Source: Candidatus Omnitrophota bacterium
GTDB taxonomy: Bacteria > Omnitrophota > Gorgyraeia > Tantalellales > Tantalellaceae
Assembly: GCA_041667545.1 (NCBI GenBank)
Contig: JBAYES010000002.1
Location: forward strand, 5,035 to 69,034
Reading direction: 5' to 3'
Length of the DNA: 64,000 nucleotides
Positions 4,956-58,709 of this stretch are shown in pieces; positions within the stretch are counted from its first letter, which is position 1; every line of letters begins with the position of its first letter. The notes under the pieces are model-generated. The model was not told where the DNA came from. It did not search any database and saw only the letters and a list, made by a program, of their open reading frames with translations. The translations under genes were made by a program, and so were the position numbers.

Positions 4956-5210
4956 ATGAAAAGGCATATTATGATACTTCTGGTGGGGAAAAGGAAAGAG
5001 TCGGCGGACAGGGTGCAGAAGACCCTTACGGGATGGGGGTGTCTTATTAAGACCAGGGTCGGTCTGCATGAAGGTGTCCTCGATGATTGTACCAATACCG
5101 GGCTTATAATGCTCGAGCTTGTGGGAGATGTTAAAAAACATAAGGAGCTCAAAAGGAAATTGGAACTTCTTCCCGGCGTTAATGTTAAACTGGTTACTGT
5201 ATCTCTGTAA
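4956..5210 (+). CDS. small ACT/NikR-C-like protein resembling the TM1266-type putative iron-only hydrogenase system regulator
   Basis: 84 aa; pattern 'IMILLVGKRKES...VQKTL..WG..IKTRVGL....GLIMLELVGD...ELKRKLELLPGVNVKL' matches my recollection of the TIGR03959 family; strong RBS AAAAGGAGGGGG; preceded by tandem-repeat element. Confidence 0.4.
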   Translation: MKRHIMILLVGKRKESADRVQKTLTGWGCLIKTRVGLHEGVLDDCTNTGLIMLELVGDVKKHKELKRKLELLPGVNVKLVTVSL

Positions 5211-5235: not shown

Positions 5236-5670
5236 CTACGGGGACACACTTAGAAGCATGTGCATTTACCCGGTACGGAAATAAGCTTGTACCGGGTAAG
5301 TATATTTTTAAAGTCCACTCATGGGGGGGTAACATCTCAGTCATCTGCAGTAAATTCCTACCCCGTCGTCACGAGGAGCCCCCGAAGGGGGCGACGAAGT
5401 GATCTCAAAATATGAAAATATCTCAGAGAGGGATTGCTTCGTCACTCACTTCGTTCGTTCCTCGCAACGACGGTCGGAGAGGGATTGATTCGGCCCTATG
5501 CCAAGTCTGCCGAAATCCTGAGCCATAGCATTTATCACGATACGAAGGGCTTCACCCGCCTTCGGCGGGTTCGTAAAGACGGGCGTGGGGACGCTACATT
5601 TCTGCGGAGAACTGAAATGTTACCATGGGGGACACTTACGAGCATAATTTTGCACCCGGTACAAGGGTAA
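5236..5670. repeat. family A-related composite repeat (copy 2), bracketed by direct repeats GGGACAC(AC)TTA..AGCAT...CACCCGGTAC
   Basis: inverted copy of the 775-979 modules; flanking imperfect direct repeats at 5241-5296 and 5628-5670 each containing CCCGGTAC...GTACCGGG-type hairpins. Confidence 0.55.
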
Positions 5671-5672
5671 AG

Positions 5673-5690
5673 TTGTGAAAAAAATCACAA
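5673..5690. promoter_or_regulatory. Rex operator (TTGTGAA-N4-ATCACAA) upstream of rex
   Basis: perfect 18-bp palindrome TTGTGAAAAAAATCACAA 69 bp upstream of rex start codon; matches Rex box consensus TTGTGAAnnnnTTCACAA. Confidence 0.7.
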
Positions 5691-5758
5691 AAAATACTTG
5701 CGTCTTAAAATTTTTATGTTAGAATGTCCCTGTTAATGGGAAAAAAGGGGCAATAAAA

Positions 5759-6409
5759 ATGTTTGAAAGAACAATAAATCGTATTTGCGGGTACAAAAAC
5801 GCGCTTTATAGGTTTAAAAAGCTTGGGTTTGTCAGGGTTTTTTCGGATAATCTGTCAGATGCCGTAGGGGTAACGCCTTCACAGGTGCGCAAAGATTTTT
5901 CCATGTTCGCCATTTCCGGGAATAAACGGGGCGGGTATAAGGTAGACGAGCTTTTGGAGAAAATATGTTTTATCCTGGGGAAAGACGATGTATGTAATGT
6001 GGTCGTGGTCGGCGCGGGGAATATAGGTCTTGCTCTTATGAAATACGGAGGTTTCGAAAAAGAGAACATGACCATAAAAGCGGCTTTTGACATAGATCCG
6101 GCAAAATTTTCCGAAAAAGAAAATATACCTGTTTTGCCGCTTTCAGAACTTGCCGTATATGTGAAAAAGGAAGATATTAAAGTGGGCATAATAGCCGTAC
6201 CCGATATTGCCGCTCAGCATGTGGCCGATCTTATGGTTGCGGCGGGGGTGAGGGGTATATTGAATTTCGCGCCGATACTTTTGAGATGCGGCGGCGAGAC
6301 GGTTGTTAAGAACGTTAATCTTGAGCTTGAGCTTGAGAACATAATATATTTTGTCAACGCGCGCGAAAAAAAAGGGACAGTCCTGGAACATGAAACCAAG
6401 CAGCCTTAA
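5759..6409 (+). CDS. rex: redox-sensing transcriptional repressor Rex
   Basis: 216 aa; N-terminal wHTH 'GVTPSQVRKDFSMF', Rossmann 'VVVVGAGNIGLAL' NADH-binding; typical Rex length. Confidence 0.8.
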   Translation: MFERTINRICGYKNALYRFKKLGFVRVFSDNLSDAVGVTPSQVRKDFSMFAISGNKRGGYKVDELLEKICFILGKDDVCNVVVVGAGNIGLALMKYGGFEKENMTIKAAFDIDPAKFSEKENIPVLPLSELAVYVKKEDIKVGIIAVPDIAAQHVADLMVAAGVRGILNFAPILLRCGGETVVKNVNLELELENIIYFVNAREKKGTVLEHETKQP

Positions 6410-8219
6410 GCGGTCGATGATATATAATTTTCTTATTGTTATACTCTTTATGAGTGTCTCCATAGGGGTTCTCGGGTTCAATGTTATACGTAAAGAGATA
6501 ATCGAAAAAGCCCAGCATCGTGTGGATAGTTATATGAAGTCTGCCCGCATACTTTACGAGACTATGATATCTTCCACCGGTAAAGAGCTGAGCCTTTTGA
6601 CCAAGCTCGATGATGTGGAAGAGATAAGGACGAGGGCGGATCTTGACTATCTTCACATTGTTGATAAACAGGATTTTGATAAGCTTAGAAGCGGGATAGC
6701 CCTAAGTTCATTGGATGGGAGCGAGGCGTCCGGAACAAGAATAATATCTTCCCGTGAACTCGAGAAAATGGGAAGGGGCCTGGATGAAAAGCTGAGAACA
6801 GAGGTAATTTCGACCCCGGGGGAGAAAGACTTTGAACCGTATTATCTGGAAGGTGTAATGGCCATGGAATACGCGAGGCCTGTTCTGGACGGAAACGGGA
6901 ACGTTGAAAAAGTGCTTTACGGCGGCAGGATAATAAACGGAAGAAGCGAAGTAGTGGACACGATGAGAGATATCATGTTCGGAGAAGAAGTATATTCAGG
7001 AAAACCTGTCGGCACGGTAACTATTTTTCAGGGAGATGTGCGAATAGCGACCAATGTCGTTAAGAGATCCGGCGACAGAGCCGTGGGAACAAAAGTTTCC
7101 CGGGAAGTTTATGAACATGTCATCGGCTCCGGCAAGAACTGGTCGGACAGGGCGCTTGTTGTTTCCGACTGGTATCTTACGGCATACGAGCCGATAAGGG
7201 ATATAGAGGGCGACATAATAGGAATGCTCTATGTGGGGATACTTGAACGGCCTTTCTTTGACATGGCAAAAAAAGTGTTTCTAATGTTCTTTGCCATAGT
7301 GACGGGTTCTGTTTTTCTGGCCTTGATCATATCGCTACTGCTCGCGGGGTCTTTTGTCAAGCCTGTTAATAGACTTGTTGAAGGAACGGCAAGGATCTCC
7401 AGGGGAGAGCTTGATCACAGGGTCAATGTGGATACGTCCATTGAGGACCTGAGATGGCTCGAAGTCTCGTTCAATGAAATGGCCGAGAGCCTTGAGTCCC
7501 GGAACAATGACCTTGTTCTGGCAAAGGAAAAAAGGGAGGCCCTGAACAAGAGGTATCTTGACCTGATAAGTTTTGTTTCCCATGAGCTTAAGGGCATATT
7601 AGCCTCGACAATACTCAATGCTTACTCGGTCAGGGATGGTTTTTTGGGGATGGTCAATTTTAAACAGCAGAAGGCGCTGGACTCTATAACACGTAACCTT
7701 GATCATCTCGACGCTACCGTAAAGAATTTTCTCAATCTGAGCCGTATTGAGAAAGGGGATATGGGCGTAATTAAAAAACAGGTTTTTCTAAGAGAAGAGG
7801 TTTTCGCGGTGGCTGTTGAGACTTTTTTGAAACAGATATCCGAAAAAGAAATGGAAATAAGGAACAATATACCTGCCGAACTTTCGGTGCCGGCCGACAG
7901 GGATCTTCTGCAGGTGGTAGCGAACAATCTTGTAAGTAATGCCGTTAAATACGGATCGCGCGGGGGAAAAATAGAGATAAATTTTGAAGACAGAGAAGAT
8001 AAATTTAAAATATCGGTGTATAATGACGGAAGGGTTTTGGGAGAAGGCGAGATCAAGAACCTATTTCACAGGTTTTCGCGGTTGGACGCTCCGGAAACAA
8101 AGAACGCTAAAGGCACTGGACTTGGCCTTTTCATTTCCAGGGAAATAGTGGAGAAACACGGCGGGACTATGTACGTGGAGCCGGGCAAGGACGGTAACTC
8201 GTTCGTATTTGAGATATAG
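6390..8219 (+). CDS. sensor histidine kinase (double-Cache periplasmic domain, HAMP, HisKA, HATPase_c)
   Basis: about 610 aa from ATG 6390 (signal/TM 'MIYNFLIVILFMSVSIGVLGF'); second TM then HAMP; H-box 'SHELKGILAS'; C-terminal G-box 'GTGLGLFISREIV'; stop codon TAG is supplied by the first 3 nt of the MITE TIR. Confidence 0.75.
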   Translation: MKPSSLKRSMIYNFLIVILFMSVSIGVLGFNVIRKEIIEKAQHRVDSYMKSARILYETMISSTGKELSLLTKLDDVEEIRTRADLDYLHIVDKQDFDKLRSGIALSSLDGSEASGTRIISSRELEKMGRGLDEKLRTEVISTPGEKDFEPYYLEGVMAMEYARPVLDGNGNVEKVLYGGRIINGRSEVVDTMRDIMFGEEVYSGKPVGTVTIFQGDVRIATNVVKRSGDRAVGTKVSREVYEHVIGSGKNWSDRALVVSDWYLTAYEPIRDIEGDIIGMLYVGILERPFFDMAKKVFLMFFAIVTGSVFLALIISLLLAGSFVKPVNRLVEGTARISRGELDHRVNVDTSIEDLRWLEVSFNEMAESLESRNNDLVLAKEKREALNKRYLDLISFVSHELKGILASTILNAYSVRDGFLGMVNFKQQKALDSITRNLDHLDATVKNFLNLSRIEKGDMGVIKKQVFLREEVFAVAVETFLKQISEKEMEIRNNIPAELSVPADRDLLQVVANNLVSNAVKYGSRGGKIEINFEDREDKFKISVYNDGRVLGEGEIKNLFHRFSRLDAPETKNAKGTGLGLFISREIVEKHGGTMYVEPGKDGNSFVFEI

Positions 8220-8369
8220 GGTTCTGCAAAATAGCGTTTTCACGTCGTTGCGAGGGAGCGAAGCGACCGAAGCAATCTTATAACTTGTTATATTTATTGA
8301 GATTGCTTCGTCACTCACTTCGTTCGTTCCTCGCAAAGACGGTATAAAAGTCCATTTTGCAGAACCCTA
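8217..8369. repeat. MITE-like inverted-repeat element, family A (copy 3)
   Basis: TIRs TAGGGTTCTGCAAAAT / ATTTTGCAGAACCCTA; imperfect 150-bp palindrome with core CGTCGTTGCGAGGGAGCGAAGCGACCGAAGCAATC; flanked by 10-bp direct repeat ATTTGAGATA (8207-8216 and 8370-8379). Confidence 0.75.
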
Positions 8370-8396
8370 ATTTGAGATATATAAAGGAGGTTAAGA

Positions 8397-8753
8397 GTGC
8401 GCACACCTTTAGAGACCATACGAAAGAAAAGGGCGGAAGCCATCAGCAGAATAGTTGGGAAGGGATATCTGTCCACCAAAAGGGTTTATGTGGGAATGGC
8501 TACCTGTGAAATAGCCGCGGGATCGGATGAAGTGATGAAGGTGTTCCAGGACGCCATAAAAGGCGGGCTTTCAGGAGTGTATCTGAGCCAGAAGGGCTGT
8601 GCCGGAAGATGTAACCTTGAGCCTACCGTAGAAGTAGTGGAAACGGGAAAGATCCCGGTCAAGTATGGAAAGATCGATCCGGTACGGGCAAAAGAAATAA
8701 TAGAAAAGCATTTAAAAAGAGGCGAGGTCATAAAAGAGTGGGTCATAAAATAA
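8397..8753 (+). CDS. thioredoxin-like [2Fe-2S] ferredoxin-domain protein (NuoE/HydB-N-terminal-like fold, only 3 Cys)
   Basis: 118 aa, GTG start after AAAGGAGG; 'GMATCEIAAGS...GCAGRCNLEP' resembles the Trx-like 2Fe-2S domain but has only three cysteines. Confidence 0.45.
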   Translation: MRTPLETIRKKRAEAISRIVGKGYLSTKRVYVGMATCEIAAGSDEVMKVFQDAIKGGLSGVYLSQKGCAGRCNLEPTVEVVETGKIPVKYGKIDPVRAKEIIEKHLKRGEVIKEWVIK

Positions 8754-8765
8754 AAAGAGGATGAA

Positions 8766-10580
8766 ATGCCGGAAAAGACAAAAAAAGAATTCCAAAGAAA
8801 AACAATAACATTTTGTAACGGGACCTCATGCATGCAGAAAGGATCCATTGATCTAAAAAATTTACTGCGGCTTGAACTCGAAAAGAGGGGTTTAACTGAG
8901 GATGATGTGCGTATAAACATATCAGGGTGTCTTGGTATGTGCGACAAGGGCCCCCTGATGATAGTCAATCCCGGGTACACGATATACGCCAATCTTAAAG
9001 AAGAGGATATCCCGATAATATTTAAAGAGCATATAGAGGGAGACAGGCCTGTCGCCGAATTTGTTACAGACGCGGACCATCTTTATAACAGGTTTTTCAG
9101 AGTGTTCGGGGATGTGGGCTTTTTCGGAAAACAGATGCGTATAGCACTTAGGAACTGCGGGATAATAGATCCGGAAAGTATAGATGATTATCTTTCTCTC
9201 AGGGGGTATGAGGCCCTGGCCAAGGTCCTTACGGAAATGTCCCCGGACGAGGTAATATCGGCGGTTACTTCTTCGGGGCTGAGGGGGCGCGGAGGTGCCG
9301 GGTTCCCAACCGGACTTAAATGGAAATTTACCAGGGAGGCTGAAGGCATAGAAAAATATGTTATTTGTAATGCCGATGAAGGCGACCCCGGAGCGTTTAT
9401 GGATAGAAGCGCCATAGAGGGGGATCCGCACACCGTTATAGAGGGCATGATAATAGGAGCTTATGCGATTGGGTCAAGCAAAGGTCTAATTTACATAAGG
9501 GCGGAATATCCCCTGGCGATAAAACGGCTGGAGTCGGCCATAAAAGCGGCAAGAGAGAACGGCATGCTGGGAAAGAACATTCTGGGTTCCGATTTTTGCT
9601 TTGATATCGAGATAAAACTCGGAGCGGGGGCCTTTGTTTGCGGGGAAGAGACAGCCCTCATACATTCAATAGAAGGCTCAAGGGGGATGCCTCGGCCAAG
9701 GCCGCCCTTTCCGTCGGTGTCCGGTCTTTTCGGCTGTCCCACTCTGATAAACAACGTTGAGACCTGGGCGAATATACCCGTGATAATAGTGGACGGGCCC
9801 GAATGGTTCAGTTCGGTGGGAACAGAGAAAAGCAAGGGTACAAAGGTTTTCGCGGTCGCGGGAAAGGTGAACAATACAGGCCTTGTGGAAGTGCCCATGG
9901 GAACAACGCTAAGGGAGATAGTTTATGATATTTGCGGAGGTATCCCTGATGATAAAAAGTTCAAAGCGGTGCAGACCGGAGGACCATCCGGAGGATGTCT
10001 TCCCGAAAAATATCTTGATACAAAAATAGATTATGAGTCACTTGCGGCCGCCGGTTCCATAATGGGCTCGGGGGGAATGATAGTGATAGACGAGGATTCG
10101 TGCATGGTAGGGATATCGAAATTTTTTCTTGAGTTCACACAAAGCGAGTCATGCGGAAAATGTACTCCCTGCCGTGAGGGGACTAAAAGGATGCTTGAGA
10201 TACTTACCAGGATCACCGAAGGGAAGGGGGTAGAGGGAGATATACAAAAGCTCGAAAGATTGGGCAACATGATAAAGAAGGCGTCTCTTTGCGGGCTGGG
10301 TCAATCGGCCCCTAATCCTGTTCTTAGCACAATAAAGAATTTCAGGGAAGAATATGAAGAACATATACGTGACAAAAGGTGCAGAGCGGGAGAGTGTAAG
10401 GACCTTCTCGTGTACGAGATAACAGATAAATGTGTGGGATGTACGGCATGTAAAAAGGTCTGCCCGACGGCCGCGATAACGGGAGACGCAAAAAAAATGC
10501 ATGTAATAGACCCCGAGAAATGTGTGAAATGCGGAAAATGTTTTGAAATATGTAAATTCGGCGCCATAACGAGATCGTGA
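8766..10580 (+). CDS. hydB: [FeFe]-hydrogenase NuoF-like flavoprotein subunit (NADH-binding, FMN, Trx-like 2Fe-2S N-domain, 2x[4Fe-4S] C-domain)
   Basis: 604 aa; FMN/NADH motif 'GLRGRGGAGFPTGLKW'; N3 cluster 'ESCGKCTPCREG'; C-terminal 'CVGCTACKKVCP' and 'CVKCGKCFEICKF' ferredoxin motifs. Confidence 0.8.
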   Translation: MPEKTKKEFQRKTITFCNGTSCMQKGSIDLKNLLRLELEKRGLTEDDVRINISGCLGMCDKGPLMIVNPGYTIYANLKEEDIPIIFKEHIEGDRPVAEFVTDADHLYNRFFRVFGDVGFFGKQMRIALRNCGIIDPESIDDYLSLRGYEALAKVLTEMSPDEVISAVTSSGLRGRGGAGFPTGLKWKFTREAEGIEKYVICNADEGDPGAFMDRSAIEGDPHTVIEGMIIGAYAIGSSKGLIYIRAEYPLAIKRLESAIKAARENGMLGKNILGSDFCFDIEIKLGAGAFVCGEETALIHSIEGSRGMPRPRPPFPSVSGLFGCPTLINNVETWANIPVIIVDGPEWFSSVGTEKSKGTKVFAVAGKVNNTGLVEVPMGTTLREIVYDICGGIPDDKKFKAVQTGGPSGGCLPEKYLDTKIDYESLAAAGSIMGSGGMIVIDEDSCMVGISKFFLEFTQSESCGKCTPCREGTKRMLEILTRITEGKGVEGDIQKLERLGNMIKKASLCGLGQSAPNPVLSTIKNFREEYEEHIRDKRCRAGECKDLLVYEITDKCVGCTACKKVCPTAAITGDAKKMHVIDPEKCVKCGKCFEICKFGAITRS

Positions 10581-10588
10581 GGGGAAAA

Positions 10589-12364
10589 ATGAAAGATAAA
10601 ATAAAGATAAATGTTAACGGAAAAGATTATAAAGCCGGGCAAGGACAGACCATCATGCAGGCCCTGGATGATCTGGGGTTCAAGACGCCACGCCTTTGCT
10701 ATCATCCCAAACTTTCAATAGAAGGGGCGTGCAGGGTGTGTATAGTGGAAGTAGAAGGCATGAAAAACTATGTGGCGTCCTGTTCTTTTCCCGTGTCCGA
10801 GGGAATGAAAATAAGAACGAATACCAAAGAGTTGAGGCAGGCGAGAAGGGACATAGTGGAACTTATACTGGATAACCACCCGGAAGACTGCCACACCTGC
10901 GAAAGGGACGGCATTTGCGAGCTTCAGAGACTGGCTTACGCTATGGGCATAAGAAAAAGGCATTTTGAGGGAGAAAGAAAGCATTATGACGAAGATCTTT
11001 CGTCCCCGGCGGTAATAAGGAACCCCGATAAATGTATTCTTTGCGGGAGATGCGTGAGAATATGTTCTGAAATACAGAAGGTGAACGCGTTAAGGTACGC
11101 CCACAGGGGCTTCGGTACGGTGGTCATGCCGGCATACAACATGCCCTTTTCGGAAAGCGTCTGTACGGCCTGCGGGCAGTGCATAAATGTATGTCCGACG
11201 GCGGCATTTCTTGAAAGGAATTACACGCAGGAGCTTTTCGAAAAGCTTAATGATCCTTCGATAATAAAAGTAGCCCAGGTAGCGCCTTCGGTGAGAGCCG
11301 CCATAGGTGAGGCATTCGGATTTCCCCCCGGCACTTCGCATGAGGGAGAGATGGCCGCAGCTCTCCGGCGGCTTGGTTTCGATTATGTTTTCGATACTCA
11401 GTTCTCGGCAGACCTCACTATTATGGAAGAAGCCCACGAGTTCCTGGAAAGGCTTCAGGGTAAAGGGAAACTTCCCATGATAACTTCATGCTCGAGCGCA
11501 TGGATGAAATATATGGAGCAGTTCACTCCGGAACTTATAGACAACGTGTCTACATGCAAATCACCTATGGCCATGATGGGATCTATACTGAAAACCTATT
11601 TTGCCGAAAAAATGAAGATCGATCCGTCAAAAATTTTTACGGCCGCGGTAATGTGCTGTACGGCCAAAAAATATGAAGCTACGCGGCCTGAGATAATGGT
11701 CAACGGGATGAAGCCGGTGGATATTGTCGTAACTACGCGTGAAGCGGCCTGGATGATAAAGTCAGCGGGTATAGATTTTGTCGGGATAAAACCCGAAAAA
11801 TTCGATAATCCTCTGGGAAATTCATCGGGGGCGGGGGCTATTTTCGGTGTTACCGGAGGAGTTATGGAAGCGGCTATCAGAACCGCTTATGAGCTTTATA
11901 CGGGAGAAACGCTGCTTGATATAGAAATAAGCGATATAAGGGGGCTTAAAGGAATTAAAGAAGGGTCTTTGAAAATGGAAGGGAAAGAGATAAGGGTGGC
12001 GGTAGCGCACGGATTGGGTAATGCCTGCGAACTTCTGGAAGTAGTCAAAAAGGATCCGGAAAGATATCACTTCATCGAGATAATGGGCTGCCCCGGAGGA
12101 TGTATAGGAGGGGGCGGACAGCCGTATGCCGGGTCTAATTCCGTGCCGCTTGACGAGGAAGTGCTTAAGAAACGGGCCGAGGCGTTATACAGCCTTGACA
12201 GGTCAAGGACAATACGAAGAAGCCACGATAATCCGGATATCCAGAGGGTATATAAGGAGTTTTTGGGCAGGCCACTGAGCCCCGTGGCGCATAAGACGCT
12301 TCATACGCATTACGCGGCTAAAAAACCCAGAGGGATAGTGCCGAAAGAGTCTATAGCAAGGTAA
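10589..12364 (+). CDS. hydA: [FeFe]-hydrogenase catalytic subunit (M3-type: 2Fe-2S N-domain, His-ligated 4Fe-4S, 2x[4Fe-4S] F-clusters, H-cluster domain) with non-canonical L1/L2 motifs
   Basis: about 591 aa; L3 'EIMGCPGGCIGGGGQP' canonical; L1 'TSCSSAW' (canonical TSCCPxW) and L2 'VMCCTAKKYE' (canonical MPCxxKxxE); F-cluster motifs 'CILCGRCVRICSE', 'CTACGQCINVCP'; aligns throughout with C. pasteurianum CpI from memory. Confidence 0.85.
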   Translation: MKDKIKINVNGKDYKAGQGQTIMQALDDLGFKTPRLCYHPKLSIEGACRVCIVEVEGMKNYVASCSFPVSEGMKIRTNTKELRQARRDIVELILDNHPEDCHTCERDGICELQRLAYAMGIRKRHFEGERKHYDEDLSSPAVIRNPDKCILCGRCVRICSEIQKVNALRYAHRGFGTVVMPAYNMPFSESVCTACGQCINVCPTAAFLERNYTQELFEKLNDPSIIKVAQVAPSVRAAIGEAFGFPPGTSHEGEMAAALRRLGFDYVFDTQFSADLTIMEEAHEFLERLQGKGKLPMITSCSSAWMKYMEQFTPELIDNVSTCKSPMAMMGSILKTYFAEKMKIDPSKIFTAAVMCCTAKKYEATRPEIMVNGMKPVDIVVTTREAAWMIKSAGIDFVGIKPEKFDNPLGNSSGAGAIFGVTGGVMEAAIRTAYELYTGETLLDIEISDIRGLKGIKEGSLKMEGKEIRVAVAHGLGNACELLEVVKKDPERYHFIEIMGCPGGCIGGGGQPYAGSNSVPLDEEVLKKRAEALYSLDRSRTIRRSHDNPDIQRVYKEFLGRPLSPVAHKTLHTHYAAKKPRGIVPKESIAR

Positions 12365-12376
12365 AAGGAGATTAAC

Positions 12377-12877
12377 ATGCTTATAAAGGAAGATGAGGCG
12401 ATAGCCGAACTCAAAGATTACATAGAAAGCAAAAAGGGAAAAGAACACGAGGAAGCGTACCTTATTGATATACTGCACAAGGCGCAGGACCTTTACGGAT
12501 ATCTTAAAAAGGACATTATGGATTTCATCGCCGATGAGATGAATATTCCCACGGCGCACATATGGGGAGTGGCCACCTTTTACCATTACTTTAATCTGAA
12601 ACCCATAGGGAAATATGTGATATCGGTATGTATGGGGACAGCCTGTTATGTAAAGGGCGCGGGTGATGTTCTCGGCGCGATAAAAAAAGAACTTAACCTG
12701 AAAGTGGGGGATACTACCGAAGACGGATTATTTACACTTCAGGAGGCCAGATGCCTGGGAGCCTGCGGACTGGCTCCGGTGGTAATGGTAAACAATAAGA
12801 TACACGGCGGACTTACCGATAGAAAGGTTGTGGAGCTTATCTCGGATTACAGGAACAAAGAAAAGGGTGTGAAATAA
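12377..12877 (+). CDS. hydC: [FeFe]-hydrogenase NuoE-like [2Fe-2S] subunit
   Basis: 166 aa; 'CMGTACYVKGAGDV...CLGACGLAPVVMVN' thioredoxin-like 2Fe-2S motifs of NuoE/HndA. Confidence 0.75.
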   Translation: MLIKEDEAIAELKDYIESKKGKEHEEAYLIDILHKAQDLYGYLKKDIMDFIADEMNIPTAHIWGVATFYHYFNLKPIGKYVISVCMGTACYVKGAGDVLGAIKKELNLKVGDTTEDGLFTLQEARCLGACGLAPVVMVNNKIHGGLTDRKVVELISDYRNKEKGVK

Positions 12878-12883
12878 GATCTG

Positions 12884-14272
12884 ATGAAATATATAGATGA
12901 AAAGAATATCTTCAGGCTTTTGGATAAAGGAAAAGATCCTCCCGATGGGGCCGTAGATGAGGCAATAGATAAAAGTCTGGCGCTCAAAAGGCTTTCTCTT
13001 GAAGAGACCTCATATCTTCTTAACTCACGAAGCAAGCGGGATGTCAGACGGATACTTGAGGCGGCTTCTCTGGTAAAAAGCAGGATATACGGCAGTAGGG
13101 TCGTTATATTCGCCCCTCTCTATATAAACAATACCTGTGTAAATAATTGTTTGTACTGCGCGTTCAGAAAAGACAATATTCTCATAAACCGCCGCCGGCT
13201 CGACATGGAGGATATTGCTAAGGAAACGGTCTCTCTTCTTAAAAGCGGTCATAAAAGGGTGCTCGCGGTCTCATCAGAAAGCGGGAATGAAGGCCTTGCC
13301 GAAGCCCGGTATTACGTTGAGGCCATAAGAACGATGTACGGTCAGGAATATAAGAATAGCAGGATAAGGCGGATAAACATTAACTGCGCCCCTCTTCCGG
13401 AAGAAGGGTTTAAACTTTTAAAGTCTTCCGGCATAGGCACCTACCAGCTTTTTCAGGAAACATACCATGGTGATACATATAAAAAAGTCCATCCTTCGGG
13501 CCCGAAGAGCGACCCCGATAACCGGCTTGACGCTATTGACCGGGCTTTCCGGGCGGGGATAGACGATGTCGGGATAGGGGCCTTATTCGGGCTTTACGAT
13601 CACAAATTCGAGGTGCTGGCTCTTCTTTCTCATGTGGAACATCTGGAAAGGACTTTCGGAGTGGGGCCCCACACCATTTCCGTTCCGAGAATAGAACCGG
13701 CTTTGGGAACAGATATAAATGAAACATCTCCGTACAAAGTTTCGGACGACGATTTTAAAAAATTGGTGGCTGTTCTGCGGCTGGCCGTGCCGTATACGGG
13801 CATAATATTGTCTACACGTGAAACTCCGGAAATGAGGGACGAGCTTTTTCGTCTGGGTATTTCTCAGGTGAGCGCGGCTTCACGTACTTCTCCCGGAGGG
13901 TACTCCGGAGAAAAGGCCGGATCTGAAGGGGCCCAGTTCTTCCTGAGCGATCATCGCAGTCTTGATGAGGTTATAGCAAGCCTGATCGAAAGGGGCGCCA
14001 TACCCAGTTTCTGCACCGCCTGCTACAGGAAGGAGAGAACGGGAGAAACTTTTATGGGTCTTGCAAGACCCGGAACGATAAAGGGAAAATGCGCTCTCAA
14101 TGCCCTTATTACGCTTAAAGAATATCTCAAGGATTTTGCTTCAGAAGAAGTTAAGGAGAAGGGAAACGCTCTTATAGAAAGACTTAAAGAAGAACTCAGC
14201 GATCAGGAGAAAAAACAGCTTGATGAATTTTTTATTCATATAGAGCGAGGGGTCAGAGACGAGCATGTATAA
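12884..14272 (+). CDS. hydG: [FeFe]-hydrogenase H-cluster maturase HydG (radical SAM tyrosine lyase)
   Basis: 462 aa; radical-SAM 'CVNNCLYCAF'; C-terminal CX2CX22C motif 'CTACYRKERTGETFMGLARPGTIKGKC' diagnostic for HydG versus ThiH. Confidence 0.85.
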   Translation: MKYIDEKNIFRLLDKGKDPPDGAVDEAIDKSLALKRLSLEETSYLLNSRSKRDVRRILEAASLVKSRIYGSRVVIFAPLYINNTCVNNCLYCAFRKDNILINRRRLDMEDIAKETVSLLKSGHKRVLAVSSESGNEGLAEARYYVEAIRTMYGQEYKNSRIRRININCAPLPEEGFKLLKSSGIGTYQLFQETYHGDTYKKVHPSGPKSDPDNRLDAIDRAFRAGIDDVGIGALFGLYDHKFEVLALLSHVEHLERTFGVGPHTISVPRIEPALGTDINETSPYKVSDDDFKKLVAVLRLAVPYTGIILSTRETPEMRDELFRLGISQVSAASRTSPGGYSGEKAGSEGAQFFLSDHRSLDEVIASLIERGAIPSFCTACYRKERTGETFMGLARPGTIKGKCALNALITLKEYLKDFASEEVKEKGNALIERLKEELSDQEKKQLDEFFIHIERGVRDEHV

Positions 14273-14310
14273 AAAACGCCGATAGTTCCTGGATTTCCCG
14301 GAACGCTAAA

Positions 14311-14427
14311 GCAGAGCTCTGCGAAACGGATTTTTATCCCGTCGTTGCGAGGGAGCGAAGCGACCGAAGCAATCTCATAATTTGTTATGTATATGAAGAT
14401 GGCTGAACAAATCATATTGCGCAGAAC
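14311..14427. repeat. MITE-like element family A, variant copy 4a
   Basis: contains core CCCGTCGTTGCGAGGGAGCGAAGCGACCGAAGCAATCTCATAATTTGTTATGTATATGAAGATG; ends ...TTGCGCAGAAC. Confidence 0.55.
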
Positions 14428-14443
14428 TTTAGGAACTCTAAAG

Positions 14444-14556
14444 TAGGGTTCTGGGAAATAGCGTTTTCACGTCGTTGCGAGGGAGCGAAGCGACCGAAGC
14501 AATCTCATAATTTGTTATGTTATGTATATGAAGATGACAGAACAAATCGATATTTT
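14444..14556. repeat. MITE-like element family A, variant copy 4b (tandem to 4a)
   Basis: starts TAGGGTTCTGGGAAATAGCGTTTTCACGTCGTTGCGAGGGAGCGAAGCGACCGAAGCAATCTCATAATTTGTTATG...; right end degenerate. Confidence 0.55.
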
Positions 14557-14596
14557 ACATAACCATCGGAATTCTAAAGTTTAAAGGAGGAAGTTG

Positions 14597-14986
14597 ATGC
14601 CTGGAAAAATATTGATAGTTGATGACGATCCCGATTTCCGAGAAGCCATGGCTACCCTGCTTGAAGCGAAAGGATATGATGTTGGAACGGCTTCGGACGG
14701 TGAAGCGGGCCTTGCCAAAGCAAGGGAAATATTGCCCGATATTATTTTGCTGGATGTTATGATGTCGGGTACGACCGAGGGGTTTGATGTGGCCAGAAAA
14801 CTTCATGCCGAAGACAAACTTAAGGACATTCCGGTCGTTATGACGACCGGAATAAGAAAAGATATGAACCTTCCTTTCGGGTTTGAGCCCGACAACGACA
14901 CTTTGCCCGTAAAAGAGGTGCTTGAAAAACCGGTTAAGCCCGAAACCCTTCTCTCAGCGGTAGCAAAACACATAAGAACGGGATGA
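14597..14986 (+). CDS. stand-alone response-regulator receiver (CheY-like REC) protein
   Basis: about 129 aa; 'KILIVDDDPDFREAMATLLEAKGYDV...ILLDVMM' with phospho-acceptor Asp context; no output domain; stop overlaps next start (ATGA). Confidence 0.7.
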   Translation: MPGKILIVDDDPDFREAMATLLEAKGYDVGTASDGEAGLAKAREILPDIILLDVMMSGTTEGFDVARKLHAEDKLKDIPVVMTTGIRKDMNLPFGFEPDNDTLPVKEVLEKPVKPETLLSAVAKHIRTG

Positions 14987-17220
14987 GAAGATACATGCGG
15001 GTAGTTTTAATCTGGTTTTTCTCGGTGTTTTCAGTGTTTTTTGGTTTTCTGTCCGCGGAAGCGCTGGAACTGGTCTCTTTTTCGCAGGAAACAGAGAAAT
15101 ACGGCCTTTTTACCGCTAAATTCCGGACTTCTTATGTAAAGGAAGATCCCGATGATCCCCGGAATATAGATCTTACGGTGGTGTTTGTTTCACCGTCGGG
15201 GGAAGTATCGGAAGTACCCGCTTTCTGCCTGAGTAACAGCAGATCCGAAAAAGTTTCTCTTTGGGAAGTAAGATTTACTCCGGAAGAAGAAGGCGAATTC
15301 TCTTTTTCGGCTAATGCGGCATTGCGCCGCCGGAATGTTTTCAGGGAGTTTTCAGGCGCGCGGTTCAACGTTAAATCTTCCACGATCAAGGGCTTTCTTG
15401 AAAAAAGTCCAAATAATCCCAATTATCTTAAGTTCTCCTCGGGAGAGCCGTTTTTCGGCATAGGCCACAATGTTGCCTGGGTATACAACTCAAATCCTGA
15501 GATATTCGGAAGATATTTTTCTCTTTTGAAAGAAGCCGGCTGTAATATCACGCGTGTATGGATATGTGATTGGTCTTTGCCTCTTGAGTCCGGGAAAACG
15601 GGCAACTATAACCGATCGTCATCTGAAAAAATTGACAGGATACTGGAACTGGCGGAACGTAACGGTATATACATAATGCTCTGCCTTGATACTTACGGAA
15701 GTCTTATGGAAGAATCCGGTATGTGGCGAGAGGGGAAATGGGGCCTGAACCCGTATAATGTGAAGAACGGAGGGCCATGTAAAAAGCCGGAAGATTTTTT
15801 TACAAATAAAGAAGCTGTCCGGCTGTACAAGAACAAACTGAGGTATGTGCTATCGAGATGGGGTTATTCCCCTAACATACTCGCTTTTGAGATATGGAAC
15901 GAATACAATTCTCCTCCTGAATGGACAAAAGAGATGGCCTCTTACCTGAAATCCATGGGAAGAAGCCGAAAACTTGTGACAACAAGTCTCGGATATCCCC
16001 GGGAAAAGGTCTTTGATGAGTCCTCAATATGGAAAATAGACGAAATTGACATTGTAACGCATCATTTTTACGGTAACGGCACGGAGCCGCAACTTGTGAA
16101 TAATCTTTTTCAAAAAAGCCGGGAATTAAAGAGCGGGTACGAAAAACCGTTCATAATATCGGAATTTGGAATAGATTTTTCCAGGAACGACAAGGATTAT
16201 GACATTCGCGGGGAAGGTAAGGCGCTTCACAACAGCATATGGGCATCTGTTTTTTCTGGTGCCGCGGCATCGGCAATGAACTGGTGGCATGATACATATA
16301 TAAGGCCGAAAGATCTTTACCGGCACTATTCGGCGCTTTCTAAGTTCCTTGAAGGCGTAAACTGGGATTCCGGAAAGATAATGTTCCCCGAAGTGAGTCT
16401 TGTGTTTTATCGCGCGGGAGACCTTAAAGGCGGCAAGGCCAGGGATGTTGTTATCCGCCCTTTGGATATATGGACAGTTTCGGGAACGTCGGAATTCGAA
16501 GTTCTGGGGAACGGAGATCTTTCCAAAGGAGGCCTGCCGTTCAAATATCTTCATGGGTCGGAAAAGAAGGATATGATAATAGACCAGATATACAAAGTCG
16601 AATACCCGGAGGAAGGCGGTTTTGTTATAAGGGTAGGCACGGTCAGCCAGGGCGGACATCTTAATGTGTTTGTTAACGACGTAAAGGTTTTAGATAGGGT
16701 ATGTCCGGCGGGGCCGGGTAAAGGCCCCTGGAAAAGAAGCAGGTTCCTGGAAAAGTATAATGTGTACCAGTGCGTATACGACGAGGATATTTTTGTTCCT
16801 GTCCCCGCGGGGAAACACGCCATTCGACTTTCGAATACGGGAGAGGATTGGATAGGGATAGATAAAATAACTCTGAAGAACTATGCCGCTCCGGACATAG
16901 CTGATGCGAGATGCTTGTCCATTAACATAGGCGGGACGCTGATGTTCTGGGTGCAGAACAGAGATTCCAACTGGATGACGGCCTATGAAGGCAGAAAACC
17001 ACATTCTATAAAAGGCGCGTATTTCGAGGTTTATGATCTTTCAGAGAACAGCTATATCCTGGAGATATGGGATACTTATTCGGGAAAAATAATATCTTCG
17101 AAAAAAGCGGAACCATCTTTCGGTAAATTAAGAGTGACCCTCCCCGAATTCCACACCGACCTCGCTTTGAAGCTTACTCCCTCTAAAAAAAGGCTTGACA
17201 GAAATGGCGGGAAGATGTAG
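14983..17220 (+). CDS. secreted glycoside hydrolase family 5-like protein with extra N- and C-terminal beta-sandwich domains
   Basis: 745 aa; signal peptide; TIM-barrel hallmarks 'IWNEYN' (acid/base NE-P-like) and 'FIISEFG' (nucleophile SEFG) typical of GH5/DUF4038. Confidence 0.45.
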   Translation: MRRYMRVVLIWFFSVFSVFFGFLSAEALELVSFSQETEKYGLFTAKFRTSYVKEDPDDPRNIDLTVVFVSPSGEVSEVPAFCLSNSRSEKVSLWEVRFTPEEEGEFSFSANAALRRRNVFREFSGARFNVKSSTIKGFLEKSPNNPNYLKFSSGEPFFGIGHNVAWVYNSNPEIFGRYFSLLKEAGCNITRVWICDWSLPLESGKTGNYNRSSSEKIDRILELAERNGIYIMLCLDTYGSLMEESGMWREGKWGLNPYNVKNGGPCKKPEDFFTNKEAVRLYKNKLRYVLSRWGYSPNILAFEIWNEYNSPPEWTKEMASYLKSMGRSRKLVTTSLGYPREKVFDESSIWKIDEIDIVTHHFYGNGTEPQLVNNLFQKSRELKSGYEKPFIISEFGIDFSRNDKDYDIRGEGKALHNSIWASVFSGAAASAMNWWHDTYIRPKDLYRHYSALSKFLEGVNWDSGKIMFPEVSLVFYRAGDLKGGKARDVVIRPLDIWTVSGTSEFEVLGNGDLSKGGLPFKYLHGSEKKDMIIDQIYKVEYPEEGGFVIRVGTVSQGGHLNVFVNDVKVLDRVCPAGPGKGPWKRSRFLEKYNVYQCVYDEDIFVPVPAGKHAIRLSNTGEDWIGIDKITLKNYAAPDIADARCLSINIGGTLMFWVQNRDSNWMTAYEGRKPHSIKGAYFEVYDLSENSYILEIWDTYSGKIISSKKAEPSFGKLRVTLPEFHTDLALKLTPSKKRLDRNGGKM

Positions 17221-17254: not shown

Positions 17255-17290
17255 GGCAGCGGCGTCTCGGCGAGACGCCTTTTTTATTTT
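17255..17290 (+). terminator. rho-independent terminator after GH5-like gene
   Basis: GGCGTCTCggcGAGACGCC stem followed by TTTTTTATTTT. Confidence 0.6.
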
Positions 17291-21427: not shown

Positions 21428-21580
21428 TAGAGTTCTGCAAAATAGCTGTTTCACGTCGTTGCGAGGGAGCGAAGCGACCAAAGCAATCCTATATCTTATT
21501 GTATTTATTGAGATTGTTTTGTCACTCACTTTGTTCGTTCCTCGTAAAGACGGAATAAAAGTCTATTTTGCAGAACCCTA
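21428..21580. repeat. MITE-like inverted-repeat element, family A (copy 5)
   Basis: TIRs TAGAGTTCTGCAAAAT / ATTTTGCAGAACCCTA; flanked by perfect 10-bp direct repeat ACGATAAGAG (21418-27 and 21581-90). Confidence 0.75.
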
Positions 21581-21606
21581 ACGATAAGAGAACAAAGGAG
21601 GTCAAA

Positions 21607-23118: not shown

Positions 23119-23316
23119 TAGGGTTATGCAAAATAGCGTTTTCACGTCGTTGCGAGGGAGCGAAGCGACCGAAGCAATCTTGTAACTTGTTATATTTATT
23201 GAGATTGCTTCGGCCTTCAACCATGCTCAGGACGAAATCCTGAGCGAAGCGAAGGGCTTCGTTACTCACTTCGTTCCTCGCAAAGACGTTATAAAAGTCC
23301 ATTTTGAAGAACTCTA
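23119..23316. repeat. MITE-like inverted-repeat element, family A (long variant, copy 6)
   Basis: TAGGGTTATGCAAAAT...CCATTTTGAAGAACTCTA; flanking direct repeat AGGAAAAACT (23109-18 and 23318-27, 1-nt offset). Confidence 0.65.
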
Positions 23317-23343
23317 AAGGAAAAACTAAAAAAGGAGGTTGAG

Positions 23344-24748: not shown

Positions 24749-24900
24749 AGAGTTCTGCAAAATAGTTGGTTCACGTCGTTGCGAGGGAGCGAAGCGACCG
24801 AAGCAATCCTATATCTTATTGTATTTATTGAGATTGCTTCGTCACTCACTTTGTTCGTTCCTCGCAAAGACGGAATAAAAGTCTATTTCTCATAGCCCTA
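24749..24900. repeat. MITE-like element family A (copy 7, degenerate right TIR)
   Basis: AGAGTTCTGCAAAATAGTTGGTTCACGTCGTTGCGAGGGAGCGAAGCGACCGAAGCAATC...GTCTATTTCTCATAGCCCTA. Confidence 0.6.
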
Positions 24901-24927
24901 TAAAAGGACATAAATAAGGAGGGGAAA

Positions 24928-43109: not shown

Positions 43110-43300
43110 CGTTCAAGGTCGGAAATGAACAAAGACGTTCATCCTCGCTGTAATACTATGGGAGGGGAACGCCTTTTTTTTTATCTGGATTGATAGATAT
43201 TAAGGCATTTTTTGGCCGCTGTTTAATCAGCTGAGAATGGCATAGATGATAATAATGAGATCAGTGGACTTAAGGACATAACAAAAAAGTGAGATGCGAA

Positions 43301-44143
43301 ATGCACAGGATAGTATTAAAAAAACAATTAAACTCCGAGATATCACTCGTGGAATTTGAGGCCCGGGACCTTGCTCTGGCCGCTGAGCCGGGTCAATTCG
43401 TTATATTGAGGGTCGACGAGAAGGGCGAACGTTTCCCCCTTACGATATATGACTTTGACCGGGCGAAGGGAACGATAACGGTGGTATGCCAGGCAGTCGG
43501 CGTAAGTACAAAAAAATTATGCGCTTTGAAAGAGGGAGAAGCCATACTTGATGCGGCTGGTCCGCTGGGACATGCTTCAAATGTAAAGGATATCGGCAAG
43601 GTCATCTGTATAGGAGGAGGAGTAGGGACAGCAGAGGCGTATCCTATAGCCCGCGCCATGAAGCGATCAGGCAATGATGTCACGGTAATAATAGGCGCCA
43701 GAAATGAGGAACTTGTTATCTGCGAAAAAGAGATCAGAGAGTTTTGCGATAAGGTCCATGTCACTACCGATGACGGGTCTTACGGCAGGAAAGGTTTTGT
43801 TACCGATGTGCTTAAAGAACTGATAGAGAAGGAAAAGTATGACCTGGTATTTGCCATAGGCCCGGTTCCCATGATGAAAAAGGTAGCGGAGGTAACCCGC
43901 GAGAAAGACATAAAAACCATGGTTTCACTGAACTCTATAATGATAGACGGAACCGGCATGTGCGGCGGATGCAGGCTTAAGTACGGGGGAAAATCAAGCT
44001 TTGCGTGTGTGGACGGTCCGGAATTTGACGCGAGTTTAGTGGATTTTGACGATCTTATGAAAAGAGGGGTCCGCTACAAGGACAAAGAAAAAAAAGCGAT
44101 GGATCATTACGGCGAAAGATGCCGTATCGGCCTTGACAATTAA
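43301..44143 (+). CDS. nfnA: NfnA / sulfide dehydrogenase beta-like subunit (FAD/NAD ferredoxin-NADP reductase fold with 2Fe-2S)
   Basis: about 280 aa from ATG 43301 (ORF track begins at GTG 43289); 'PGQFVILR' FAD-binding, C-terminal 'GTGMCGGCRL' 2Fe-2S motif characteristic of PyrK/NfnA family. Confidence 0.7.
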   Translation: MHRIVLKKQLNSEISLVEFEARDLALAAEPGQFVILRVDEKGERFPLTIYDFDRAKGTITVVCQAVGVSTKKLCALKEGEAILDAAGPLGHASNVKDIGKVICIGGGVGTAEAYPIARAMKRSGNDVTVIIGARNEELVICEKEIREFCDKVHVTTDDGSYGRKGFVTDVLKELIEKEKYDLVFAIGPVPMMKKVAEVTREKDIKTMVSLNSIMIDGTGMCGGCRLKYGGKSSFACVDGPEFDASLVDFDDLMKRGVRYKDKEKKAMDHYGERCRIGLDN

Positions 44144-52103: not shown

Positions 52104-52177
52104 GCTTTTTGTGTGGATAAAGTCTTTATTTTTGGAAGTCATTAAGCTATTTGTTGTTGGAGAGGAATAGATCAAAG

Positions 52178-56325: not shown

Positions 56326-56373
56326 AGCAACGGATACCGGAAAAGATGAAGATAATACTTAGTGGATGATTTT

Positions 56374-56587
56374 TAGAGTTCTGCAGAATGGACTTTTATA
56401 ACGTTTTTACGAGGAATGAACGAAGTGAGTGACGAAGCCCTTCGTATCGTGATAAATGCTATGGCTCAGGATTTAGGCAGAGTTAGTAAATAGCCGAAGC
56501 AATTTCAATAAAGATGACAAGTTATAAGATTGCTTCGGGCGCTTCGCTCCCTCGCAACGACGTAAAAACGATATTTCGCAGAACCCA
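56374..56587. repeat. MITE-like element family A (long variant, copy 8)
   Basis: TAGAGTTCTGCAGAAT...ATATTTCGCAGAACCCA; flanking direct repeat GGATGATTTT / GGATGGTTTT (1 mismatch). Confidence 0.7.
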
Positions 56588-56614
56588 GGATGGTTTTAAA
56601 AAAGGAGAAGAATA

Positions 56615-56752
56615 ATGGATAAATATGTTTGCCTGGTGTGCGGTTATATTTATGATCCCGCCCAAAACGACGGAGTTTCCTTCCAGGATCTTCCGGAAAA
56701 CTGGGTTTGTCCGGAGTGCGGTGTTGGGAAAGACCAGTTTGAAAAAGCATGA
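56615..56752 (+). CDS. rubredoxin
   Basis: 45 aa (below ORF-track cutoff); 'CLVCGYIYD...[14 protein letters not shown]' two CxxCG knuckles; RBS AAAGGAG. Confidence 0.75.
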
Positions 56753-58684: not shown

Positions 58685-58709
58685 CGTATATCAAAAAAGG
58701 AGGGGAATT

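Follow-up and report, generated by a model that had tools for sequence, protein, structure and literature searches.

The hydrogenase locus

A 64-kb stretch of DNA from a Candidatus Omnitrophota bacterium, referred to as the window at its full length, contains a locus for an [FeFe] hydrogenase whose structural genes are enclosed by regulators. The genes for the redox-sensing repressor Rex and for a membrane-bound sensor histidine kinase precede the hydrogenase genes, and a gene for a stand-alone receiver domain (REC) follows them. HydABC-type hydrogenases, the class of this enzyme, determine how fermenters, acetogens, and syntrophs keep H2 and redox state in balance, and their regulation beyond Rex and the putative H2-sensing HydS proteins is largely unknown. 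The conserved cassette described here suggests that hydrogen metabolism is tuned by the redox state of the cell and by formate outside it.

All gene calls of the locus were confirmed, and all features lie at the coordinates given in Table 1. The initial annotation, made from the sequence alone, had listed a Rex box, rex, a Cache-HAMP kinase gene, a miniature inverted-repeat transposable element (MITE), a gene for a small protein, hydB, hydA, hydC, and hydG. This order is borne out by the open reading frames and by Pfam and NCBIfam, and the 3' part, comprising two tandem MITE variants, the lone REC, and a secreted GH5-like protein, by Pfam and repeat analysis. The same DNA was found in two public assemblies.

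Table 1. Features of the hydrogenase locus, numbered from the first nucleotide of the window
Feature	Position	Strand	Evidence
84-residue CPF_0552-family protein, likely accessory gene	4956-5210	+	NF052672, 96.3 bits (cut-off 85)
Intrinsic-terminator-like hairpin closing the upstream unit	5264-5301	+	15-pair stem followed by T-run
Remnant of long MITE variant just 5' of the promoter	5484-5661	+	local alignment to the long copy at ~56330-56640 (-)
Rex operator TTGTGAAAAAAATCACAA	5673-5690	.	one mismatch to consensus
rex, redox-sensing repressor	5759-6409	+	Pfam PF06971 and PF02629; NCBIfam NF003996
Sensor histidine kinase	6390-8219	+	sCache_3_3, HAMP, HisKA (H398), HATPase_c
MITE insertion	8219-8369	.	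terminal inverted repeats GGGTTCTGCAAAAT/ATTTTGCAGAACCC, 12-bp target duplication
118-residue thioredoxin-like ferredoxin-fold protein (HydD/BfuD-type small subunit), 3 Cys	8397-8753	+	PDB phmmer matches
hydB, NuoF-like subunit	8766-10580	+	Pfam
hydA, H-cluster subunit, HydABC-type [FeFe] hydrogenase	10589-12364	+	NF040763
hydC, NuoE-like [2Fe-2S] subunit	12377-12877	+	PF01257, E 1.9e-50
hydG, radical-SAM H-cluster maturase	12884-14272	+	TIGR03955, 488 bits (cut-off 312)
Two tandem MITE variant copies, each bounded by GGAACNCTAAAGT	14300-14580 (14300-14444 and 14432-14580)	.	
Stand-alone receiver domain REC	14597-14986	+	Pfam Response_reg only
Secreted DUF5060 and GH5-like protein	14983-17220	+	Pfam; signal-peptide-like N-terminus
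Intrinsic-terminator-like hairpin GGCGTCTCGGCGAGACGCC followed by T6	17261-17279	+	
hydE maturase, unlinked, 38 kb downstream	52151-53239	+	TIGR03956, 334 bits (cut-off 255)

Conservation of the gene order

Relatives of the kinase were sought in one genome per species. A relative was present in 221 genomes, and the best 80 were tabulated; synteny counts refer to loci with enough flanking DNA. Loci of relatives are designated by L numbers where needed. The 80 loci are labelled Omnitrophota, Planctomycetota, Auribacterota, Bacillota, Spirochaetales, Synergistia, Vulcanimicrobiota, Fibrobacterota, or Raymondbacteria. The kinase family as a whole comprises 1,554 matches at E ≤ 1e-20, with full-length identities of 46-50% among the matches listed; the few source names among these are Omnitrophota, Sedimentisphaerales, or unclassified bacteria.

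The arrangement of the regulators and the enzyme is highly conserved. The rex gene adjoins the kinase gene in 69 of 77 loci, the gene for the 118-residue protein (hydD) comes next after the kinase in 71 of 75, and hydB and hydA are located 3' of the kinase in all 55. A REC of at least 50% identity is encoded downstream in 40 of 43 loci. These cassette-closing REC orthologues are 53-76% identical among loci, far above the level typical of paralogues. Relatives with 73%, 57%, and 49% kinase identity all keep the order rex-kinase-hydD-hydB-hydA-hydC-(maturases)-REC, and one of them is the complete genome of Candidatus Velamenicoccus archaeovorus (L007/L012). The same order is found in a 7.5-Mb genome, which is probably planctomycete as judged by its similarity to loci of Sedimentisphaerales/Phycisphaerae. 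A comparison of kinase-hydrogenase-REC synteny across relatives had been proposed with the initial annotation; when it was run, the series rex-kinase-hydD-hydB-hydA-hydC-...-REC proved to be kept in essentially every adequately sequenced genome. This decisively contradicts a lack of such synteny in all relatives, which would have refuted the earlier interpretation.

In L071, L077, L079, and L081, the bracket of rex, kinase, and REC surrounds two further gene orders and sub-types of HydABC, so the regulators follow the enzyme class and not one operon. The cassette is widely distributed and probably horizontally mobile. In L079 (10001-21830), from a metagenome-assembled genome (MAG) labelled Raymondbacteria, a single rex-kinase pair is located before two tandem HydABC operons, one in CBA order and the next of the hydD-BAC type.

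The hydrogenase

The domain set is that of the HydABC/Bfu type (group A3), with a HydA that carries the H-cluster domain and N-terminal Fe-S domains, a NuoF-like HydB, and a NuoE-like HydC. According to Pfam, HydB consists of an N-terminal 2Fe-2S domain, a site for flavin mononucleotide and NADH, and a C-terminal 2x[4Fe-4S] domain. HydA, for which the gene callers place the start at ATG 10589, scores 828 bits with NF040763 (cut-off 765). Its best PDB match is the bifurcating HydA1 of Thermoanaerobacter kivui (8a6t_A, E 2e-180), and HydA1 of Acetobacterium woodii matches with E 5e-162. The enzyme is therefore assigned to the HydABC-type (NuoEF-linked, electron-bifurcating-type) [FeFe] hydrogenases, with bifurcation as a prediction.

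The three H-cluster motifs read, in textbook form, TSCCPxW (L1), MPCxxK (L2), and CxxGCxxGGGQP (L3). In the window, L3 is canonical, L1 reads TSCSSAW (11483-11503, residues 299-305), and L2 reads MCCTAKK (11651-11671, residues 355-361). Both variants are kept in ~62 BAC-order loci. The active HydA1 of A. woodii (7q4v_A) has TSCSPGW/MPCTAKK, likewise with a serine at the fourth position of L1, and paralogous hydrogenases in L053, L059, L060, L079, and L081 have TSCSPGW/MPCxAKK. The additional cysteine in L2 and the lost cysteine in L1 may indicate altered ligation or an altered proton relay.

The product of hydD was called a small 2Fe-2S protein in the initial annotation. The fold stands, as the protein matches the N-terminal domain of NfnB (9n5u_B, E 8.8e-12), Aquifex Fd4 (1f37, E 3e-6), and the thioredoxin-like ferredoxin domain of HoxF-type subunits in searches of PDB sequences, all of which point to a thioredoxin-like [2Fe-2S] ferredoxin. 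Cluster binding is unproven, because only three cysteines are present. No Pfam family matches above threshold, PF01257 being weak (E 0.015). The protein is 70-88% identical in most BAC-order loci, including those with labels of other phyla.

Two tblastn queries found no hydF in the 64-kb window. In the relative L003, hydF is located between hydG and the REC gene.

Rex, its operator and the transcription unit

The rex product combines a winged-helix domain (Put_DNA-bind_N) with a Rossmann NAD(H) domain (CoA_binding), in which the GxGxxG motif appears as VVVGAGNIG. It scores 221 bits with NF003996 (cut-off 138). The consensus of the Rex operator, TTGTGAAnnnnTTCACAA, and the knowledge of the regulon reportedly stem from Ravcheev et al. 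in 2012. An 18-bp inverted repeat of this form, with one mismatch, is present at the promoter of the cassette, and it is the only sequence in the 64-kb window that matches TTGTGAANNNNTTCACAA with no more than one mismatch. The box overlaps or abuts a candidate promoter (ATCACA-16-TAAAAT, 5684-5711) found in a promoter scan.

The same or a near-identical box occurs 35-240 nucleotides (nt) 5' of rex in 43 of 81 loci. In 1.3 Mb of related loci, 54 boxes with up to two mismatches were detected, 45 of which lie within 320 nt upstream of rex. A second box with at most one mismatch was not found in the 64 kb, and boxes are rare within the cassettes of relatives. The conserved position upstream of rex supports the earlier proposal that Rex acts on its own gene. 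A weaker Rex-like box, GTGGGAAAAAGTTCACAA (1388-1405, two mismatches), is located ~170 nt 5' of a gene at 1577 for a pyridoxal-phosphate enzyme of Cys/Met metabolism and may be due to chance.

The kinase gene overlaps rex by 20 nt. Convincing terminators on the + strand are found only before the promoter (5264-5301) and after the GH5 gene (17261-17279), the latter being the first after the rex promoter. The scan yielded no convincing one between 5301 and 17261, which is consistent with one long transcription unit. Co-transcription of the kinase and hydrogenase genes, as initially postulated, is also supported by MITE-free relatives, in which the last kinase codons contain the ribosome-binding site of hydD.

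The sensor kinase and its predicted ligand

Two hydrophobic segments of the kinase (residues ~8-35 and 292-327, from hydropathy) flank a periplasmic sensor of ~260 residues. The sensor is bimodular, and its C-terminal module is a formate-type sCache_3_3 domain. Pfam assigns PF17202 (sCache_3_3) with E 3.2e-33 and PF17201 (Cache_3-Cache_2) with E 4.5e-21. An AlphaFold2 model of residues 34-296 (predicted local distance difference test score 88, predicted template modelling score 0.87) has three parts, beginning with a long helix at the N-terminus, which is followed by an alpha/beta module and then by a canonical Cache module corresponding to sCache_3_3. The top Foldseek matches in the PDB are the formate-bound structures 8PY0 and 8PY1, from chemoreceptors of Oscillibacter ruminantium and Asticcacaulis benevestitus. 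When all PDB sequences were searched with a sensor profile, only these two entries matched (E 3e-8 and 5e-6).

Cache_3-Cache_2 and sCache_3_3 domains bind formate specifically (PMC11804620). The residues of the pocket were defined experimentally and comprise an arginine that forms a salt bridge (R142 in PacF), two threonines (T145 and T158), a tyrosine (Y167 in R3), and a phenylalanine floor (PMC11804620). The authors propose the R/T/T/Y pattern as a marker of formate binding, and according to them the floor residue (F182 in R3, F175 in R6) limits the pocket to formate (PMC11804620). The marker was confirmed independently on an sCache_3_3 receptor of Roseburia (PMC11844446). In the kinase of the window, R218-x2-T221-x12-T234 shows a spacing identical to that of R142/T145/T158 in PacF, and Y266 aligns to Y167 of R3. 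Neither the 120 cluster representatives nor the 84 loci compared show any change at R218, T221, T234, Y266, or a further tyrosine, Y281.

Control by an external ligand, as put forward in the initial annotation, is supported by this pocket, and the ligand can be made specific, because the pocket matches those of formate-binding Cache domains. The kinase is predicted, with slightly better than even confidence, to sense formate or a ligand of formate size. Group A3 [FeFe] hydrogenases serve redox balance in the organisms described in PMC10066038, and the physiology fits formate sensing.

Kinase and receiver have the features of a two-component system. The kinase contains HisKA and HATPase_c domains with an invariant H398, and the receiver contains the acidic pocket together with the Asp, Thr, and Lys. 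The H-box of the kinase (7581-7595, residues 398-402) reads SHELKGIL, with the glycine in 116 of 120 sequences. Phosphatase activity of HisKA kinases usually needs the Thr/Asn of an E/DxxT/N motif. The kinase may be mono-functional, which bears on whether REC is a phosphate sink, as discussed below.

The receiver and its fusion to HydC

In the family alignment the phospho-acceptor site of REC is intact (D10-D12, D54, T85, K112). The family shares the signature GIRKxMNLPFGFEPD..LPVK.VLEKP, and its beta4-alpha4-beta5 face is strongly conserved. REC consists of a single domain in the window as well as in the top 120 homologues, none of which carries a DNA-binding or enzymatic output domain. With the cassette REC as query, tblastn revealed no second REC in the 64-kb window. 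The pairing of REC with the kinase is suggested by their co-occurrence (40 of 43 loci). Assignment as a DVU0259/DivK-type regulator was rejected, with 65 bits against a cut-off of 160.

The target of the receiver is indicated by a second protein architecture. In L071, the gene directly after the kinase (11860-12753) encodes a 297-residue fusion of a Response_reg domain (residues 10-127) and a NuoE/HydC thioredoxin-like domain (residues 147-286). This architecture is present in more than 115 protein clusters, in the context rex-kinase-[REC-HydC]-(hydD)-hydB-hydA-REC. The fused receiver keeps the Asp in 110 of 119 sequences, plus the Thr and Lys, and HydC is the only fusion partner found for this REC clade. 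By Rosetta-stone logic, the fusion puts a receiver of this clade that can be phosphorylated directly on the hydrogenase. An effect on HydABC at the protein level, at or near HydC, is thus the best-supported output, although it falls a little short of probable. The fusions point to the hydrogenase as target, and looking for a DNA-binding partner of REC, as had been recommended with the initial annotation, is therefore probably misdirected. A search of one literature library found no description of a cassette of Rex, Cache kinase, and receiver, or of a REC-HydC fusion.

The fusion proteins (~290 residues) occur in Omnitrophota and Auribacterota and are mostly annotated just as 'NADH-quinone oxidoreductase subunit E'. 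They are usually encoded directly after the pair of rex and Cache kinase, and further examples are L089 (8001-8882) and L090 (8001-8894). In L091 the fusion is found without the kinase, and its REC match is weak.

Proposed mechanism and alternative explanations

A mechanism with two levels of control is proposed. Rex would bind the 18-bp operator and repress rex, the kinase gene, hydDBAC, hydG, and the REC gene when NADH/NAD+ is low. NADH would release Rex, as judged from the conserved position of the box and the known mechanism of Rex. The membrane kinase would sense periplasmic formate, or a ligand of that size, via its sCache_3_3-type module. Motifs, fold, and strict co-occurrence suggest that it autophosphorylates on H398 and passes the phosphate to D54 of the lone receiver. 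The receiver, which has no DNA-binding domain, would then contact the hydrogenase, most likely at or near HydC as suggested by the fusions, and tune its activity or direction. In this genome, a MITE has split an ancestral translational coupling of kinase and hydD, and the GH5 gene is a lineage-specific add-on.

It is very likely that Rex, the two-component system, and the hydrogenase form a functional unit. The complete explanation, in which Rex and the kinase-REC pair both control the hydrogenase, is moderately probable. Layered control by NADH/NAD+ and an external ligand, the central idea of the initial annotation, gains support from the conserved Rex box and the formate-type sensor pocket. 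A more specific version is offered tentatively. REC may be a dissociable subunit of HydABC, covalently attached in sister systems, which upon an extracellular formate signal relayed by the kinase would dock on HydC and gate the electron flow or its direction post-translationally.

Several observations weigh against these proposals. The taxon labels of many of the MAGs are unreliable. In many planctomycete loci the Rex box is degenerate (3-5 mismatches), at a fixed position. On the sensor side, the phenylalanine of the pocket floor is missing, with the invariant Y281 aligned there; a counterpart of T105/T100 could not be mapped on the kinase sensor; identity to the formate binders of known structure is just 20-23%; and the sensor has an additional N-terminal module (~110 residues) that these lack. 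On the output side, the fused and the free REC are paralogues with ~54% identity, and cassettes with a fusion still retain the free REC, which may accordingly serve as a phosphate sink or contact a different protein, for example Rex. Outside the 64 kb, the genome may encode a response regulator that binds DNA. In Planctomycetota, an OmpR-type regulator and a second HAMP/HisKA kinase follow REC, and this lineage-specific second two-component system might supply the transcriptional output there. It was observed in L088 (19806-21863) and ~12 other loci, with a second REC match ~1 kb after REC.

The best-surviving alternative concerns the ligand. The ligand of the sensor may not be formate but, for example, a carboxylate or some other small anion, or a molecule bound by the N-terminal module, and the R/T/T/Y residues may be kept for that purpose. 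The tyrosine in place of F182, the extra module before the sCache_3_3 core, and the low identity to solved formate binders all suit this idea, which is a credible though lesser possibility. It has to account for the invariance of the salt-bridging Arg, both Thr, and the hydrogen-bonding Tyr, which together are the very marker that was proposed for formate and upheld in a second study (PMC11804620, PMC11844446). The sensor profile, moreover, detects no other PDB sequence than the formate binders.

Alternatively, both inputs may converge on the promoter. Phosphorylated REC would bind Rex, or would act through an unlinked DNA-binding regulator, and thereby change the occupancy of the operator. 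The near-constant adjacency of rex and kinase (69 of 77 loci), often with an overlap such as the 20 nt in the window, is in line with such feedback; so are the free REC retained beside the REC-HydC fusion, which may have a separate job, and the OmpR-type regulator directly after REC in planctomycete loci. However, neither a Rex-REC fusion nor a DNA-binding domain was found among the top 120 REC homologues, the sole fusion partner is HydC, and the OmpR-type neighbour has a kinase of its own and is confined to one phylum. Feedback on Rex or transcription is therefore considered unlikely.

Still less probable is a role of REC as a mere phosphate sink or phosphatase substitute, with the true output regulator of the kinase encoded elsewhere and the operon position serving only co-expression. 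Single-domain receivers often serve as phosphate sinks, and the H-box HELKG, in which Gly replaces the phosphatase Thr/Asn, is a reason why a sink could be useful. The identity of REC across many phylum labels (53-76%) and its conserved alpha4-beta5 surface argue instead for a conserved protein partner. In more than 115 clusters a functional REC is covalently joined to HydC, which would be unexpected for a sink, and no DNA-binding regulator is consistently linked.

The adjacency of REC and GH5 genes

The initial annotation had pointed out an ATGA overlap between the REC gene and the GH5-like gene. The overlap is present in the window, yet it is not a general feature, as the adjacency is limited to close relatives and the overlap is not conserved. 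It presupposes a start at ATG 14983; the ATG at 14995, which follows the stop of REC by 9 nt, is an equally plausible start. In relatives the two genes are separated by 2-8 nt and do not overlap. A GH5 gene follows REC only in L003-L005, whose kinases are at least 57% identical, and in none of the 80 species loci. The link is probably incidental, and the GH5 gene a lineage-specific passenger. A functional pair, in which translational coupling links polysaccharide degradation to H2 metabolism, could appeal to the overlap, the close spacing in L003-L005, and the shared terminator at 17261, but this is most improbable and was rejected because GH5 is absent from all 80 species loci, REC elsewhere preceding hydF, a TM1266-like gene, hydE, ribosomal genes, or another two-component system.

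Comparison with known systems

Clusters for group A3 hydrogenases of sub-type III, with the 'BAC order' BfuABC(D), were described in 2024, and their carriers include Candidatus Velamenicoccus archaeovorus and Anaerohalosphaera (PMC11406978). BfuD was reported for this sub-type in V. archaeovorus (PMC11406978). The cluster in the window corresponds to them in gene order, with hydB-hydA-hydC and a small BfuD/HydD gene in front. The terms 'Rex' and 'response regulator' are absent from that paper, and the bracketing rex, Cache kinase, and REC genes are undescribed there (PMC11406978).

The 18-bp palindromic operator at the promoter, the winged-helix and Rossmann domains of Rex, and autoregulation are shared with the Rex operons of Firmicutes and Thermotogae, in which Rex control of hydrogenase and fermentation operons is established. 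The window differs in the translational link between rex and a sensor kinase gene and in the receiver gene that closes the operon, which would provide a second, extracellular input.

The sensor resembles the formate chemoreceptors PacF, Atu0526, R3, and R6 (PMC11804620) and Roseburia D1 (PMC11844446) in its sCache_3_3 domain and Arg/Thr/Thr/Tyr pocket, and their structures are the closest solved ones. Unlike these chemoreceptors, the protein of the window is a histidine kinase with an extra N-terminal module and a tyrosine instead of the floor phenylalanine, and its formate binding is a prediction.

Dedicated signal-transduction proteins encoded with hydrogenase genes are also a feature of H2-sensing systems. 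Among [NiFe] hydrogenases, these are HoxBC/HupUV with the kinase HoxJ/HupT and the regulator HoxA/HupR. Putative sensory [FeFe] hydrogenases (HydS, group C) adjoin A3 clusters (PMC11406978). Both kinds of system use a hydrogenase-like H2 sensor, and their output is by DNA-binding regulators or Ser/Thr phosphorylation, whereas the cassette of the window encodes a Cache sensor outside the cytoplasm and neither a hydrogenase-like sensor nor a DNA-binding output.

In Thermoanaerobacter and Clostridium thermocellum, operons of the type hydC-[HATPase-only 'histidine kinase-like' gene]-hydD-hydB-hydA are said to occur, as reportedly described by Soboh et al. in 2004 and in genome annotations. As in the window, a kinase-family gene would presumably be located directly 5' of the small HydD-type gene there. 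The encoded proteins, unlike the kinase of the window, are presumably short and cytoplasmic, without sensor, HAMP, and HisKA domains, and without a linked receiver.

New in the present locus is the addition of a two-component system to the control of a HydABC hydrogenase by Rex, together with a specific candidate ligand and a candidate for the enzyme component that is targeted directly. The cassette, present in at least 221 species-level genomes, connects HydABC with a probable sensor of formate and with a receiver that in some systems is fused to HydC. This offers a testable route by which cells may coordinate H2 and formate, the two main interspecies electron carriers, and suggests that an electron-bifurcating complex is controlled after translation. 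It also provides a large orphan kinase family (>1,500 database matches) with a likely ligand and a likely role in physiology. If REC indeed docks on HydC in response to formate, no earlier two-component system would have been shown to act directly on a bifurcating redox enzyme, here on top of NADH-responsive repression by Rex.

The MITE family

The element between kinase and hydD is ~150 bp long, carries terminal inverted repeats, and is flanked by a 12-bp duplication, ATTTGAGATATA (8207-8218 and 8370-8381). Target duplications of 12-13 bp were found at two sites, this one and the copy at 21454. The window contains 8 copies of the core, where 0 would be expected. Its short length, the repeats, the target-site duplication, the multiple copies, the absence of a transposase, and an empty site in relatives are those of a MITE. 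As RNA, it forms a hairpin of -74.7 kcal/mol (z -7.8) without a U-tract.

The insertion shortens the kinase by 4 codons and separates its gene from the ribosome-binding site of hydD. The kinase now ends with TAG (8217-8219), the G of which is supplied by the MITE. When the MITE and one duplicate are removed in silico, the kinase ends in ...FEIYKGG at a TAA 2 nt before the GTG start, and a ribosome-binding site, AAAGGAGG, is located within its last codons. The MITE-free relatives L003 (ending in ...FEITKGG) and L011 (ending in ...FEICKGG) have the same arrangement at this junction. The inference drawn earlier from the target-site duplication, that the kinase stop once overlapped the ribosome-binding site of the hydrogenase operon, was therefore correct, as the restored junction is that of MITE-free relatives. 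The tandem variants between hydG and REC occupy the place where L003 has hydF.

The family includes short (~150 bp) and long variants with a very stable hairpin. Copies are located at 8219-8369, 14300-14580, 21430-21590, 23120-23330, 24750-24910, and 5365-5661, and on the minus strand at 56330-56640 and 58450-58700; the stretch at ~5365-5475 contains more core-like sequence. Most copies lie within operons, 10-30 nt 5' of the ribosome-binding site of a + strand gene.

Neighbouring genes

The 84-residue CPF_0552-family protein adjoins the Rex promoter on its 5' side. It is distant kin of the 'iron-only hydrogenase system putative regulator' TM1266, with a weak match to TIGR03959 (E 1.6e-4), and is also distantly related to the C-terminal fold of NikR. 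A gene for a protein of 84 residues is likewise located 5' of rex in L003. A member of the CPF_0552 family is encoded between REC and hydF in V. archaeovorus (L007, 20127-20381), and a true TM1266-family member between REC and the hydF position in an Auribacterota locus (L090, 13340-13591). The 84-residue protein is probably another accessory of the hydrogenase system, which was missed in the initial annotation.

Downstream of the cassette, a block for nitrogen assimilation (17441-45573) encodes a type III glutamine synthetase, a GAF-ANTAR regulator, two ammonium transporters separated by MITEs, carbamoyl-phosphate synthase, cytidine triphosphate synthase, and large and small glutamate synthase. 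The gene pair at 43289-45573 has NfnAB-like domains. In V. archaeovorus, genes for ammonium transporters and P-II are also located upstream of rex.

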